Below, piece by piece: positions 1 to 16,877 of a stretch of DNA of 64,000 bases (position 1 is the first letter of the stretch; the number at the start of each line of letters is the position of its first letter). Made by a program: the position numbers and the translations under genes. The notes under the pieces were generated by a model. The model saw nothing but the letters and a program-made list of their open reading frames with translations. It did not search any database and was not told where the DNA came from. The DNA is from Acidobacteriota bacterium (GTDB taxonomy: Bacteria; Acidobacteriota; Terriglobia; Bryobacterales; Bryobacteraceae), in contig JAPKYX010000193.1 of assembly GCA_026394075.1 (NCBI GenBank), forward strand, positions 3,053 to 67,052, read 5' to 3'.

Positions 1-1
1 G

Positions 2-139
2 GCTTCGATCGCCGCCAATACGGCTGTCGATTTCAGTGCCTCCGTGGGCCTGCCGCCGAAGCCCAATACGGCCTCCGCGCCGCTGCCGCCGTTCACCGCG
101 AACTTGGAGTTTGAAACCAAGGTGGAGGTCTCCGCATGA
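2..139 (+). CDS. 3' end of an upstream gene of the contractile-injection operon (partial, family not assignable)
   Basis: Frame is open from the window edge with G/C-rich third positions. Stop TGA 137-139 overlaps the ATG at 136 (ATGA coupling). Tail reads ...PPFTANLEFETKVEVSA. Confidence 0.4.
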   Translation, partial: ASIAANTAVDFSASVGLPPKPNTASAPLPPFTANLEFETKVEVSA

Positions 140-522
140 CGTTCCGTCACTTGGGGCTCGGCTGGCCGTTTCCGCCCTCGCCCGATCCGCGCACCGGGGC
201 CCTGGCCGATGTCGAAGGCCCGGACCGCGTCCGGCAAGCGATCCGCATCATTCTCGAAACCGAGCCCGGCGAGCGTCTGATGCGCCCCAGCTTCGGCTGT
301 GGCCTGCGCCGCTATCTGATGAAACCCAACACCACTGCCACGCGCGCCTTAATCGAGCATGATGTCGAAACCGCGCTTTCGGTGTGGGAACCCCGTATCC
401 GCCTGCAATCGGTGAGTGTCGAACCCGGTGATGATCCTTCCCTGGTGCTGATCTCGATTGCCTACCTGGACGCCCGCACGCGGCGTCCTGACAACCTGGT
501 CTACCCGTTCTACCTGGAGTAA
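136..522 (+). CDS. GPW/gp25-family baseplate wedge protein (Afp9/Cis9-like)
   Basis: 128 aa. Shows the hallmark gp25 pattern VRQAIRIILETEPGERLMRPSFGCGLRRYLMKP...VWEPRIRL. Coupled to both neighbouring genes. Confidence 0.9.
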   Translation: MTFRHLGLGWPFPPSPDPRTGALADVEGPDRVRQAIRIILETEPGERLMRPSFGCGLRRYLMKPNTTATRALIEHDVETALSVWEPRIRLQSVSVEPGDDPSLVLISIAYLDARTRRPDNLVYPFYLE

Positions 523-526
523 GCAC

Positions 527-14100: not shown

Positions 14101-15150
14101 CTGTTTGATAGCGCCCCCGATCTGGCCGCTTCGGGGCAGTGGACCGCCATCGAACAGAAGCTCCAGGGCGTTCTGCTGGCCGACCTGCGTTTCGAGTCCG
14201 GTACCGCCGTACCGGAAGCAACTGAGTTCAAGGTGCTGGCCGACAAGTGGCTGGCGCTGGGGGTCGGAAAACCCCGGCTGGCCTCGGTGGTCTATCGTGA
14301 TACCCCCGCCAACATTCCCGCTCTGGCCGTCGATCGCTTCAAGGCCACCATGCCGGCGCTCGGCTCCAACCAGACCAACCCGATCATCAGCACAGGGTTG
14401 AGGGCACTGGAGGCCGATATCCAGTCCGTGGTGCTCGTCTTGATCCAAACGGTCGAGCCAGCCCGAACGCCCACCGCCCCCGTACAGCCGGTGCCCGCCA
14501 GTCCCGGCAATACAACCATTCCCAGCATTCCGGGCGACCGCGTCCCGCCCGCCCGCCCGGACGTCGTCCCCGCGCAACCGCCACCGGCTCCCGCGATCCC
14601 AGCGACGACTCCCGTGAGGCCCCCCGCGCCTCCCGCGACTCCGACCACCACGCCAGCTACGCCAACCACCACGCCAGCCACACCGGCCGCACCGGCTACG
14701 CCAGTTACCCCGGTGACGCCGCCCGTGATCCCCTCCACCACGCCCGCGCCTGTCCGTCCCGTCGGTCGAGCTGCGCGGCTGATGTTCGTCAAGGCGGACA
14801 CCGCGTCCTTTGCCGCTTCGGGTCGCCTGGCGGATCTGTTCCCCACGCGGACCTTCCTCGTGAAGTTCACCGCGGATTCCACTCTCGATGGTCCGCTCCC
14901 CGACCTTCCACCGGAACTCAAAGCCCGCGTGCGCCGCGTGGCCATCGGGACTCCCGGTTCTGCCGTCGAGGCCGGGGCGGAGCGGCGCGCCAAAGCACTC
15001 GTGGGCGGCCTCGTTCAACTGGGGCTGATCGCACGTGATGCCACCGGAGCCCCGCTGTTCGATCTCGACTCGGCCGCCTTGCCGGCGTCGCTGAGGAACC
15101 AGATGTCCGATGGTGCCAGCGAGTTGATCCTGGCTGAGGTCCTCGGGTAA
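11158..15150 (+). CDS. Large (1330 aa) hypothetical protein with Pro/Thr-rich linker and small C-terminal domain
   Basis: GTG start sits in a GTGA overlap with the upstream stop, with AGGAGG 5 nt upstream. N-terminus LNYFDGQFLRASHLNLEQRY...VSDGLAIDPQGRVL. The P/T-rich segment is at about 14458-14763. Confidence 0.8.
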   Translation: MTYDKNFPAGGILLSTRTTDKLLLNSPGSGISLIPEDSELTRLNYFDGQFLRASHLNLEQRYLRRVVEFSNQAGGGGITHGFSLSLGSGDTLNVSDGLAIDPQGRVLLLAEKRSVSIAELIARSVGSLRTTTASKRGSAEMKDCVQEAAATPSGVQGSTTLYLVTLNFAEALCGPEDVYGQLCDNACQNETQRAYWLEGIVLRVRPLALRTPLATSSAATLTRQHLRSLVASAYFEQERREIAHLISKSGLSSETWCAGAESDGGADVPVGVLLRAGTSTILDSWTVRRERIETPPHRYWQWHMAMRPKDVFLAQVLQFQCQLRDLTRDTSVPQDDPCSKTKRVLSEAEEAYFHLSTFYSQVAERLVSAPGIPETESMKYLRQKGSAPLRVMSDQLRQVKEQAAVTLSERALIDGGIVELPSAGYLPVVPGDAMTVNEQVRRWMGEGVDLRFCAVRPDFVPHAWEEAQHMERISLLEGLDDAKRKPRVDILIPDGEITRTTPQATGTAFQARWLKVREGEGFALNGAARIESTVNGPLKFYAAVAGSLSGGYRTVGKSVADYANIARDAKKYMARQRTNKALDEPVELAYQTQSVAAWGSLEFDRDPFSMRVNDQTAVRSRMVLHSNEGTLESHDIQVFGTLRVLETKTGNTADAIQARGILIGAIQHRVRSASGNTPGAVPPAPLSVILVRTATRIKVQIVSDTKGYEYSLELVRGGDPLQARGTLRFQAPDFDSDQIPGELEQDPAVLTSGNANNTLARAALDVIEAALGESGFSASSAKLLFATPEATGGELAVKATRDWVLFHRRREKDCGQDVPKPQSPPRRQYQIYHLELNANSLDLAKRIRGLLQTAAPELARVGFESAGQIIFEGGTAQLASDDDAVRASWALVQPGKQILYSAIGSRGAAEDEGPALGNARLAATVAALAPLSVPIANAVSEDLPGAPLAVTGTDGSIFILTVTPVAKTFDRQRIYAFTNKDLFDSAPDLAASGQWTAIEQKLQGVLLADLRFESGTAVPEATEFKVLADKWLALGVGKPRLASVVYRDTPANIPALAVDRFKATMPALGSNQTNPIISTGLRALEADIQSVVLVLIQTVEPARTPTAPVQPVPASPGNTTIPSIPGDRVPPARPDVVPAQPPPAPAIPATTPVRPPAPPATPTTTPATPTTTPATPAAPATPVTPVTPPVIPSTTPAPVRPVGRAARLMFVKADTASFAASGRLADLFPTRTFLVKFTADSTLDGPLPDLPPELKARVRRVAIGTPGSAVEAGAERRAKALVGGLVQLGLIARDATGAPLFDLDSAALPASLRNQMSDGASELILAEVLG
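14458..14763 (+). repeat. Pro/Thr/Ala low-complexity coding repeats (includes 21-bp PTTTPAT x2 at 14641-14682)
   Basis: Translation reads ...PPPAPAIPATTPVRPPAPPATPTTTPATPTTTPATPAAPATPVTPVTPPVIPSTTPAPVRP. Confidence 0.85.
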
Positions 15151-15221
15151 CTCCTTATGCGCAAGGCGAGCCAGCCGCCCTCTCAGTCGCCCCCCCAGCC
15201 TCGGCTCGTCGAGGTGCGCGC

Positions 15222-16877
15222 ATGAATCGGAGCATGAATCGGACGGCGGCGGCACCGGCGCATGCCGCCGCCCGCCCGGCCGTCGCACCAGGCCCGCAAG
15301 CCGGTTCGCGGGCACCGGACTCTTCCCCCGCGGGATCTCTGTGGCCGCGTATGGCGATGCGGAGTGCACCAGCCCCCCGGGCGGGACAACGGCTGACGGT
15401 CAGCGATCCTCACGACGCCACCGAGCGGGAAGCCAGTCACTTGTCCCATCGCTTGACCGGTCGGCCCGAAGCGGCCCCCCAGGCAGCTCCGTGCGCCTGC
15501 CACGGAACCTGCCCCCGCTGCCGAGCCAGCGGGAAACGGAAGCAGGTCTCAGGTGCGGTCGTCGAACAAGCCACCCGCTCCGGCGGACAACCGCTTTCTC
15601 CCGCTGAACGGGAATCCTTTGAGCCGCGGCTGGGCTACGACCTCAGCCCGGTCCGCGTCCACAGCGGTACGGACGCGAATCTCTCCGCCCGCAGTGTCTC
15701 GGCGCTGGCCTTTACCTATGGGCACGACATCGTGATGTCGGATCGCGTCGTGCCCGGCACCGCGCAACACCACCAGATTCTCGCCCATGAGCTGGTCCAT
15801 GCCACCCGGCACGCGGGCGATGATGCACTTCATCGGATTCCTGATGAGTCCGGGGTCAATGAGACGCCGCCCCGGTATTCTTACTCCACCAATTGCGGTT
15901 GGATCGATTGGTCCCATGCCGATCCCGGCATGACCATGCAGTTGATCCAGGCCGTCCAGGATGCCTCCGATCGGATGGCGGCCGGTGGCTCGACGACGCC
16001 GGAGTCGGTGGATGCTCCGCAGATGACCGCCCACGCGCCCTACGTCGGCATCTTGCTCAGCGGCGTCACGCCGGTGGCCCACATCAAGCGACCGCTCTCC
16101 AAGGATGAAGTCCTCAGCGTATCGCTCCAGTTGTTCATGTTGCAGTCTCTGGGCTTTGAAGCGCTCCAAGCCTGGACCGACGGCGCCGGCCACTCTTCCT
16201 ATTCGGAAGAAGACCTGCCGTCCAATATGCTGGCCTTTTACATGGGTGCCCGCGGGTTCACCCGGGCTCGCATCGAGAGGACGTGCGACGTCTGGGATGC
16301 GGCCCGCACGCTGACCGAATTTCAAGGCCACACCTTCGTGCGGAACCACACCTTCCGTCCTCTCAGCCTGCCCTCTGGTGGGTCCTGGCCGGCTGATCTG
16401 AATACCATCACCCCGGCCGTCACCAATGGCCCATTGATGGATTCACCCGACGCCGTTTTCGAGACCACCGGTGGTACGTTCACTCGAAGTCTGGAAGGCT
16501 ATGAGCTGATCAACAGTGGCCGTCTGCACATCGACAGCCTAAGCGGCTCCGGTGCTGTTGATATCTCCGGCACGACGCCGGGTTCTGCCCACGGTCCGCA
16601 TTTTCAGGTCAACCCGCTGCCCAATGTTCTGGGCATGGTGTGCCGCTGGATCATCCAGCTACCGGACGATTCCCGCGTTCAAATGAAAGGCGATGACGAA
16701 TCGTCGGTCTTCCAATGGACGGACCAGTTCAACGCCTACATCAATGCGCCCTCGCGAGAAGTGCTGCGCCAGCAGAACATTACGTCGGCGAACATCCTCT
16801 GCCGCGTGCGCGTGGCCGCGAGTGGCGCTGCCATGTTGGAACGGCTGCTCACACTGCCCGTGACCTTCAATTGGTGA
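15222..16877 (+). CDS. DUF4157 (eCIS-associated zincin-like) domain protein with unknown C-terminal domain; candidate eCIS cargo/toxin
   Basis: Cys-rich leader CACHGTCPRC. Then LSPAERESFEPRLGYDLSPVRVHSGTDA...ALAFTYGHDIVM...ILAHELVHATRH, with HELVH at 15786-15800, which is typical of DUF4157. About 350 aa downstream has no motif I recognise. Confidence 0.8.
   Translation: MNRSMNRTAAAPAHAAARPAVAPGPQAGSRAPDSSPAGSLWPRMAMRSAPAPRAGQRLTVSDPHDATEREASHLSHRLTGRPEAAPQAAPCACHGTCPRCRASGKRKQVSGAVVEQATRSGGQPLSPAERESFEPRLGYDLSPVRVHSGTDANLSARSVSALAFTYGHDIVMSDRVVPGTAQHHQILAHELVHATRHAGDDALHRIPDESGVNETPPRYSYSTNCGWIDWSHADPGMTMQLIQAVQDASDRMAAGGSTTPESVDAPQMTAHAPYVGILLSGVTPVAHIKRPLSKDEVLSVSLQLFMLQSLGFEALQAWTDGAGHSSYSEEDLPSNMLAFYMGARGFTRARIERTCDVWDAARTLTEFQGHTFVRNHTFRPLSLPSGGSWPADLNTITPAVTNGPLMDSPDAVFETTGGTFTRSLEGYELINSGRLHIDSLSGSGAVDISGTTPGSAHGPHFQVNPLPNVLGMVCRWIIQLPDDSRVQMKGDDESSVFQWTDQFNAYINAPSREVLRQQNITSANILCRVRVAASGAAMLERLLTLPVTFNW

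Follow-up and report, generated by a model that had tools for sequence, protein, structure and literature searches.

The core gene set of the contractile injection system (CIS) superfamily comprises Afp1/5, Afp2/3/4, Afp7, Afp8, Afp9, Afp11, Afp15, and Afp16 (Chen et al. 2019). Among the described extracellular CIS (eCIS), eBAP3/5 fibres pair with Tail_P2_I adaptors, several fibres are encoded in 23% of loci, and the eBAP3/4 anchors are shoulder-like, similar to TssK and to the tCIS crown protein (Nachmias et al. 2026, PMC12923769). Acidobacteriota are not mentioned in that work. Systems of lineage II are without a recognised tape measure. In the AlgoCIS of Algoriphagus machipongonensis (subtype Ib), the disordered N-terminal domain of the cargo is the loading signal and the AAA+ protein Alg15 mediates loading, for which DUF4157 is dispensable. 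Here, we describe a locus at positions 1–16877 of a 64,000-nt stretch of Acidobacteriota DNA (contig JAPKYX010000193.1; the whole stretch is referred to as the window). With a probability of roughly 85%, this locus represents the distal portion of one operon encoding a phage-tail-like CIS of the Tail_P2_I-adaptor class from uncultured Bryobacteraceae-like Acidobacteria. CIS loci of this class occur commonly among bacteria of soil and fresh water. To our knowledge, no member of the clade to which the locus belongs has been purified, imaged, or studied experimentally.

The list of open reading frames (ORFs) for 1–16877 comprised nine that are complete and run in one direction, together with the 3' end of a tenth gene. 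Inspection of the sequence placed ATGA junctions at 136 and 4901, a GTGA junction at 11158, and an 8-nt overlap, ATGAGTAG, at 6444–6451. Gene starts were set at 527, 2733, and 4901, where the longest ORFs begin at 458, 2724, and 4790, respectively. Eight of the nine complete gene models were identical to the GenBank PGAP proteins MCX6598059–MCX6598066 (locus tags NTV70_17015–NTV70_17050), encoded on an 82,202-nt contig of an 'Acidobacteria bacterium' metagenome-assembled genome (MAG). These are named 'GPW/gp25 family', 'putative baseplate assembly protein', 'phage tail protein', 'ATP-binding protein', and, in four cases, 'hypothetical'. An earlier note on this DNA had listed ten co-directional genes joined at 136, 4901, 6444, and 11158, and had recognised gp25, baseplate J, gpI-like, AAA+, and DUF4157/HExxH families among them. 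All junctions were found at these positions, and each family was upheld by Pfam or NCBIfam.

The Pfam E-values within the array are far beyond chance. The product of the gene at 136–522 (+), a gp25/Afp9-type baseplate wedge protein (sheath initiator; MCX6598059), matched GPW_gp25 at 9.5e-24. The protein encoded at 527–2710 (+), a Baseplate J/Afp11/gp6-like wedge protein, matched Baseplate_J at 2.8e-15 and TIGR02243 at 1.4e-90, the latter over its cut-off. The gene at 2733–4904 (+) encodes a gpI/TssG-like baseplate adaptor with a C-terminal Tail_P2_I domain (1e-10), preceded on its N-terminal side by an NHL repeat (2.7e-8), and with a TIGR02242 match of 1.1e-18. This adaptor is kept over its full length throughout the clade and is the predicted docking site of the fibres. 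The Afp15-type AAA+ ATPase (6444–8444, +; Pfam AAA, 3.5e-26) consists of a winged-helix N-domain (WHD variant, 9.8e-13) and one classic-clade AAA module. Its Walker A motif GPPGTGKT is encoded exactly at 7764–7787, where the earlier note had read it; its Walker B motif is VLFFDE, and its best PDB relatives are the D2 domains of VCP/CDC48 (~1e-43). Thus, the gp25-like Afp9, Baseplate-J Afp11, and AAA+ Afp15 members of the core set stand together in one co-directional array.

The proximal genes of the operon were read from relatives. A Bryobacteraceae MAG contig (L003) is collinear with window positions 1–12737 at 91.7% DNA identity. Directly 5' of its gp25 gene lie, in order, genes for a sheath, a tube, a second sheath, a second tube, a CIS_tube protein, a split VgrG, and a protein of about 498 aa. 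The families matched were Phage_sheath and T4_gp19 (twice each), CIS_tube, GPD, and Phage_base_V (gpV/OB-fold), and this proximal order recurs throughout the clade. The sheath, tube, tube-initiator, and VgrG-like spike genes of the core set were therefore found in L003, outside the window. A cap gene starts the operon in two IMG/VR relatives with a sheath about 65% identical (L083 and L084), accompanied by a gene for 273–294 aa. It matched Pvc16_N (DUF4255) at 7.8e-26 and 1e-24 and lies two genes upstream of the sheath gene. With the proximal genes counted from relatives in this way, the core genes of the superfamily other than the cap gene are represented. The expectation of the earlier note that tube, sheath, spike, and cap genes lie to the left of position 1 is borne out for sheath, tube, and spike by the collinear contig; for the cap it holds in the more distant relatives only.

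Three observations concern these upstream regions. A gene for a sigma-54 enhancer-binding protein lies just 5' of the cap gene (L083 1350–2825, +; L084 6570–8045, −), and L084 has a well-spaced −24/−12-like element, TGGTATCTTGCTTGCT, at 8182–8197; this hints at sigma-54-dependent expression of the operon in this clade. The CIS_tube (Afp7-like) protein of L003 (4851–6206) has a low-complexity tail of 300 aa that is rich in Gly, Ala, Ser, and Leu, contains repeats of the GLSxG type, and closes with CGCGC; this tail could be an alternative ruler or a lumen-filling element. Membership in the Tme-type clade of S. davawensis was ruled out, as no giant gene resembling a DUF4157 tape measure is present 5' of the L003 baseplate genes.

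The earlier note had called the locus Afp/PVC-like. In the strict sense, this label did not survive comparison with the Afp and PVC particles of Serratia and Photorhabdus (subtype Ia). The gp25–J–adaptor order, the dedicated AAA+ ATPase, the 3' cargo genes, and the overall sheath–tube–spike–baseplate logic are the same. However, the adaptor matched CIS12_fam only C-terminally (model positions 429–709; 1.1e-40) and far under the cut-off (140 versus 860 bits), neither an adenovirus-like Afp13 fibre nor a recognisable Afp14 tape measure is present, and VgrG is split into GPD and gpV genes. Furthermore, the cap gene follows the ATPase gene in Afp/PVC and starts the operon in relatives of this clade, and the cargo here is of the DUF4157 type, whereas PVC cargo is without DUF4157. 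The CIS12_fam and CIS13_fam scores far below cut-off, the split VgrG, and the Tail_P2_I adaptor therefore point to the other major baseplate class. AlgoCIS has an AAA+ ATPase and cargo proteins (Cgo1/Cgo2) built from a disordered N-terminal domain, DUF4157, and a C-terminal domain, an architecture that the putative cargo here appears to share. It differs in baseplate class (gp7-like Alg12 versus Tail_P2_I) and gene order, and its fibres showed no detected sequence similarity.

The closest likeness is to the Tail_P2_I eCIS with eBAP3-type fibres. In both, a Tail_P2_I adaptor replaces the full Afp12, several fibre genes encode one common N-terminal anchor, the anchor fold appears TssK/tCIS-crown-like, the distal parts are bulky and variable, and DUF4157 cargo is present. 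Afp6, Afp12, Afp13, and Afp14 are likewise unrecognisable, and the spread crosses phyla. The locus thus fits a 'lineage II'-like class in the sense of Chen et al., of the eBAP3/5 baseplate type, as assigned from gene features. A difference is that a module of a 516-aa protein, the AAA+ ATPase, and a coiled-coil protein parts the fibre genes from the adaptor gene here.

Searching the J protein against 185,579 species genomes yielded 152 relatives. In about 35 loci, with J proteins 45–65% identical, the genes follow the same order: gp25, J, NHL/Tail_P2_I, 516-aa protein, AAA+, (coiled coil), 434-aa protein, and 1330-aa protein. These loci belong to Acidobacteriota, Gemmatimonadota, Beta- and Gammaproteobacteria, Planctomycetota, and Actinomycetota. 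Since so many loci have this order in common, the locus is typical for its kind, and the remark in the earlier note that it departs from the canonical layout no longer holds: the layout is standard in a large clade. Isolates with a genome sequence also carry relatives (Plasticicumulans lactativorans DSM 25287, Ramlibacter paludis, Actinoplanes sp., and Nitrococcus mobilis), so that the clade is already in public data.

The fibre candidates are two proteins encoded 3' of the ATPase gene: a protein of 434 aa (9857–11161, +), which is a candidate short fibre or TssK-like baseplate-peripheral protein, and a protein of 1330 aa (11158–15150, +), which is a candidate large fibre of the receptor-binding type. 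About 95 N-terminal residues are common to both (BLASTP, 7e-5), with the anchor motif LNYxxGxxLxxxDFxxEQxY...LHxxGVVxGL...PGLAIDxxGxEL (alignment A6). The same motif is found in sister-clade genes located directly 3' of gpI; L048 has three of these genes, and L049 and L053 have one apiece. Directly 3' of gpI is the canonical fibre position; judged from gene order, the 516-aa/AAA+/coiled-coil module intervenes between adaptor and fibres in the present locus. Both N-termini matched CIS13_fam, at 1.2e-5 (24.7 bits) for the 434-aa and 0.007 (15.6 bits) for the 1330-aa protein against a cut-off of 370. Apart from this weak N-terminal match, no PDB, Pfam, or PHROG sequence match was obtained for either protein, and Pfam DUF6519 (eBAP5) was not matched at E ≤ 10. 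In the earlier note, no Afp13-type fibre gene had been recognised between the gpI-like gene and the ATPase gene, and 6.7 kb of unknown genes had been placed between the ATPase and the cargo. The first statement stands. Fibres are not missing, as their candidates occupy 9857–15150, and the 6.7 kb resolve into the coiled-coil protein gene (8456–9823) and the two fibre-like genes.

The AlphaFold2 (AF2) model of the 434-aa protein (pLDDT 84.7) shows a beta-rich N-domain that includes the anchor (a 'shoulder'), a neck of helices, and, at the C-terminus, an Ig-like head. This head matches the Ig domains of SbsC, CopC, and Ldt, and a fold search with the whole model was swamped by Ig-domain matches; in a viral library, only low-TM phage receptor-binding proteins were found. 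Therefore the anchor was remodelled as residues 1–300 with the Ig head removed (AF2, pLDDT 84) and compared with 350,542 PDB chains using Foldseek. The ten best matches were all either the tCIS baseplate 7B5H or TssK (5MWN, 5M30, and 6N38), and the TssK entries 6GIY and 5Y0E ranked just under them. The matches are weak: E-values were 0.012–0.08 for 7B5H (prob 0.6–0.9) and 0.04–0.6 for TssK, with a TM-score of about 0.24. Because only CIS baseplate-peripheral proteins stand at the top of 350,542 chains, the match appears specific though weak. It also agrees with the shoulder-like and TssK-like eBAP anchors described previously (PMC12923769).

The 434-aa family has 644 members, and the 1330-aa family has more than 839 homologues, all unnamed. 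The 1330-aa protein has a conserved N-terminal part of about 500–1000 aa, a Pro/Thr/Ala-rich linker at approximately 1096–1205, and a small C-terminal domain. In one subgroup of the family, only the first ~490 residues are common, at about 50% identity, and relatives have exchanged C-termini with distal DUF11, CARDB, or Ig-type domains. Such a combination, conserved at the anchor and variable at the tip, is typical of receptor-binding proteins. The Tail_P2_I adaptor at 2733–4904 thus co-occurs with fibre candidates that combine a conserved anchor with variable distal parts, as in eBAP3 systems.

A gene located between those for the spike (gpV) and for gp25 bears on where such a particle might act. 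Window positions 1–139 (+) hold its 3' end, the last 45 codons and the stop, of which 1–135 encode the C-terminus; it was identified by tblastn to L003, where the full gene lies at 8117–9613, and to L001. The ~498-aa product is clade-specific and contains a hydrophobic helical hairpin of about 40 aa, FSIPLITIVAxFVFxLFLPIVVFxFxLWFLLxLKFC, with KD19 values of 2.4–3.0. The hairpin is kept in 46 of 47 clade loci scored, from five phyla (the exception is L026). No Pfam, PHROG, or PDB match was found for this protein. The hairpin could be a membrane anchor or part of a membrane-active spike accessory, and its conservation leaves room for a membrane-associated mode of action. It is a possibility that this spike-side protein makes the clade membrane-interacting in a way that is not known from any eCIS.

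An unlikely but not negligible explanation is therefore a cytoplasmic or membrane-anchored CIS, comparable to Streptomyces CIS, Anabaena tCIS, or T6SS-iv, in which the TssK-like and hairpin proteins would tether the particle to the membrane of the producer. The nearest folds of the anchor, a tCIS baseplate protein and TssK from type VI secretion systems (T6SS), are consistent with such tethering, as are the description of Tail_P2_I as TssG-like (PMC12923769), the conserved hairpin between spike and gp25, and the intracellular action of the lineage-II Streptomyces CIS. These fold matches to Anabaena tCIS and to TssK (7B5H; 5MWN, 5M30, 6N38, 6GIY, and 5Y0E) are weak (E ≥ 0.012). Against tethering, the tCIS protein Cis13 has a transmembrane helix, whereas neither fibre-like protein has a transmembrane-grade segment (maximum KD19 1.14 and 1.73). 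The 1330-aa protein has relatives with exchangeable domains for surface binding (DUF11, CARDB, or Ig-type), and an eBAP3 fibre has been reported to retarget PVC particles. In addition, no TssJ, TssL, or TssM genes were detected among the scanned proteins.

Alternatively, the 434-aa and 1330-aa proteins might be purely structural parts of the baseplate, such as TssK-like connectors or a cage, with no role in receptor binding; recognition would then lie with another part, such as the adaptor's NHL region. The 434-aa protein is conserved over its full length (37–57% identity) with little C-terminal variation, which is unusual for a receptor-binding protein. The nearest folds belong to structural baseplate proteins, and the NHL repeat region is conserved in the clade. 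The 1330-aa family speaks against this arrangement with its conserved N-terminus, variable C-terminus, and adhesin-type domains in relatives. So do the sister clades, whose gpI genes are followed by as many as three genes encoding the anchor motif, as in multi-fibre loci (PMC12923769). A purely structural role of both proteins is accordingly given a low probability.

The gp25, J, and gpI genes also belong to P2-type tails, PGAP and JGI give them phage baseplate or tail annotations, and IMG/VR lists related loci as 'viral' contigs. Nevertheless, a myovirus prophage tail module or an R-type tailocin is very improbable. The operon includes an AAA+ ATPase of its own, from the classic clade, along with a DUF4157/eCIS_core protein, relatives have a Pvc16_N cap and a CIS_tube protein, and Pfam- and PHROG-type searches found no phage-type tape measure at the locus. 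No capsid, portal, terminase, lysis, or TssJLM genes were present among the scanned proteins of the 64-kb window and the flanks of relatives, and no integrase or head/packaging genes were found in the 47 kb downstream or in the 10 kb upstream in relatives. As neither head and packaging genes nor T6SS membrane-complex genes were seen, the choice of a CIS over a prophage tail or a T6SS in the earlier note is retained. A canonical T6SS is hardly credible: apart from a TssE-type NCBIfam match of the gp25 protein below threshold (0.0019; 17.8 bits versus a cut-off of 53.2) and the TssK-like folds, there was no match to TssK (including Pfam), TssF, TssG, TssM, or TssBC, no TssJ, TssL, TssA, or ClpV in any scanned protein, and no T6SS membrane complex here, and Baseplate J, the Pvc16_N cap, and DUF4157 are eCIS markers absent from T6SS i–iii.

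Two further clade-specific proteins flank the ATPase. The 516-aa protein (4901–6451, +) is encoded always directly 5' of the ATPase gene, and its gene is translationally coupled to both the adaptor and the ATPase genes. Alignment A5 showed that its N-domain and its C-domain are conserved, the latter with VRFVYE at its end; it also showed a WAWRQLGLW motif and a variable linker that is disordered. The family comprises 68 homologues, all unnamed or 'hypothetical'. No match to Pfam, NCBIfam, or PHROG was obtained (no family at E ≤ 10), and neither the single sequence nor the family profile matched the PDB. Based on the fixed adjacency to the ATPase gene, our guess is that it may be an ATPase partner or assembly factor. 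Its position is that of Afp14, but a tape-measure function is unlikely, as the protein has two globular-looking domains with a disordered linker and no long helical ruler.

The coiled-coil protein (8456–9823, +) has 455 aa, of which 29% are Ala. A positional orthologue between the ATPase and the fibres was found in 20 of 30 loci scanned. An exhaustive search gave 169 representatives at E ≤ 1e-10, which are only 30–40% identical. Among the 150 listed, 95 have a length of 440–469 aa and 16 a length of 500–529 aa (modes of ~450 and ~515), and the two modes differ by one coiled-coil indel of about 55–75 aa. The conserved C-terminal end, SALRGD-x, has the form [S/G/A]A[L/V/I]RGD-x in at least 89 (alignment A4). 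No Pfam, NCBIfam, PHROG, or PDB match was obtained, in the PDB with either the single sequence or the family profile. The length constraint and the conserved terminus suggest a tape measure. It is a doubtful, tentatively held proposal that this protein may be the tape measure of lineage-II/Tail_P2_I systems and form one assembly/loading module with the 516-aa protein and the AAA+ ATPase. It is just as conceivable that the protein is a fibritin-like accessory of the fibres.

The last gene of the array (15222–16877, +) encodes a putative DUF4157 cargo or effector. Its product matched PF13699 eCIS_core (formerly DUF4157) at 5.8e-20 (71.7 bits versus a cut-off of 22), with an HELVH (HExxH) motif at residue 189. 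The N-terminal ~112 residues are Pro/Ala/Ser-rich, with 72% disorder-promoting and 14% order-promoting residues as judged from composition only. The 350-aa C-terminal domain has no detectable relatives in Pfam, NCBIfam, or PDB. The start of this gene is uncertain (15222, 15234, or 15351), and no 551-aa version of the protein was present in the protein collection. In a JGI contig (L110), the orthologue is annotated from a GTG, which drops the N-terminal region; the region is nonetheless conserved at the protein level between both genomes. The stretch at 15222–15560 also encodes a CACHGTCPRC (CxCxxxCxxC) motif.

DNA identity to the L110 contig is 88% over a stretch that begins at 9770 and ends precisely with the stop codon at 16877; beyond it, the flanks are unrelated. 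The locus therefore ends at 16877, with the right junction as a rearrangement point, and the DUF4157 gene closes the array as the earlier note had proposed. Eighteen nucleotides after this stop, at 16895–16941 (−), a 47-nt tRNA-Met(CAT)-like 3' half was read from the sequence, comprising the anticodon loop, T-arm, acceptor end, and CCA. It is unique in the window, with 0 expected by chance, and was not called as a tRNA. This fragment stands at the right edge of the conserved block and may be an att-site remnant or mark a rearrangement hotspot. As proof of an integrated island it is unsupported: in the usual geometry, a minus-strand 3' fragment would bound a rightward element, and no intact tRNA-Met is present in the window.

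Beyond the fragment, a secreted-protein gene, a tRNA-Cys gene, and then ordinary chromosomal and metabolic genes follow. The GC content dips to 0.605 at 16878–18830. The ORF at 17026–18639 has a probable start at an internal MNLTRRALGANL... signal-peptide-like sequence; the product is secreted-looking and had no Pfam match. The tRNA-Cys(GCA) lies at 18682–18756 (−). Farther downstream, the strand composition is strongly anomalous at 38001–40000 (GC skew −0.17, AT skew +0.27), over minus-strand ABC-transporter permease and ATPase genes (37780–41545). Three other genes have no link to the CIS locus: a TPR-CHAT protein gene (32745–35597, −), a PAS/histidine-kinase/receiver protein gene with a C-terminal B12-binding domain (51372–54440, −), and a protoglobin-HAMP-MCP chemoreceptor gene (54992–57358, +).

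What was observed here is the content, order, coupling, and conservation of the genes; by analogy with Afp, PVC, and AlgoCIS structures and genetics, a mechanism can be proposed. The gp25, J, and Tail_P2_I adaptor proteins would assemble as six wedges surrounding the hub and spike, whose genes lie upstream. The 434-aa and 1330-aa proteins would, as trimers, dock on the adaptor by their shoulder-like N-domains, and they would bind targets with the parts thus presented, an Ig-like head and a distal part that is large and variable. The AAA+ ATPase would recognise the disordered N-terminus of the DUF4157 protein and thread this cargo into the tube lumen. Engagement of the fibres with a target would open the baseplate and let the sheath contract from gp25 upward, and this contraction would drive the tube, spike, and cargo into the target.

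Several points weigh against the assignment to such a fibre-bearing CIS. The match of the fibre-like proteins to CIS13_fam lies far under the family cut-off, and the fold matches of the modelled anchor are statistically weak (E 0.012–0.5, TM ~0.24). The sheath, tube, and spike genes were seen in relatives only, and the cap gene only in those with a sheath of ~65% identity. The predicted cargo's C-terminal domain is without assignable activity, and three of the ten genes are without known structure or function. The membrane-type hairpin and the cytoplasmic nature of the characterised lineage-II systems of Streptomyces caution against taking the release of free particles for granted.

These results provide a parts list for the clade, which includes the fibre positions, three conserved genes without assignment, and the likely cargo. 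The features that had at first seemed anomalous are usual for the clade and call for no explanation of their own. What remains of interest is the trio of conserved proteins without assignment together with the displaced two-fibre array. Such a parts list eases the expression of these systems, the search for the lineage-II tape measure, and the retargeting of a two-fibre baseplate.

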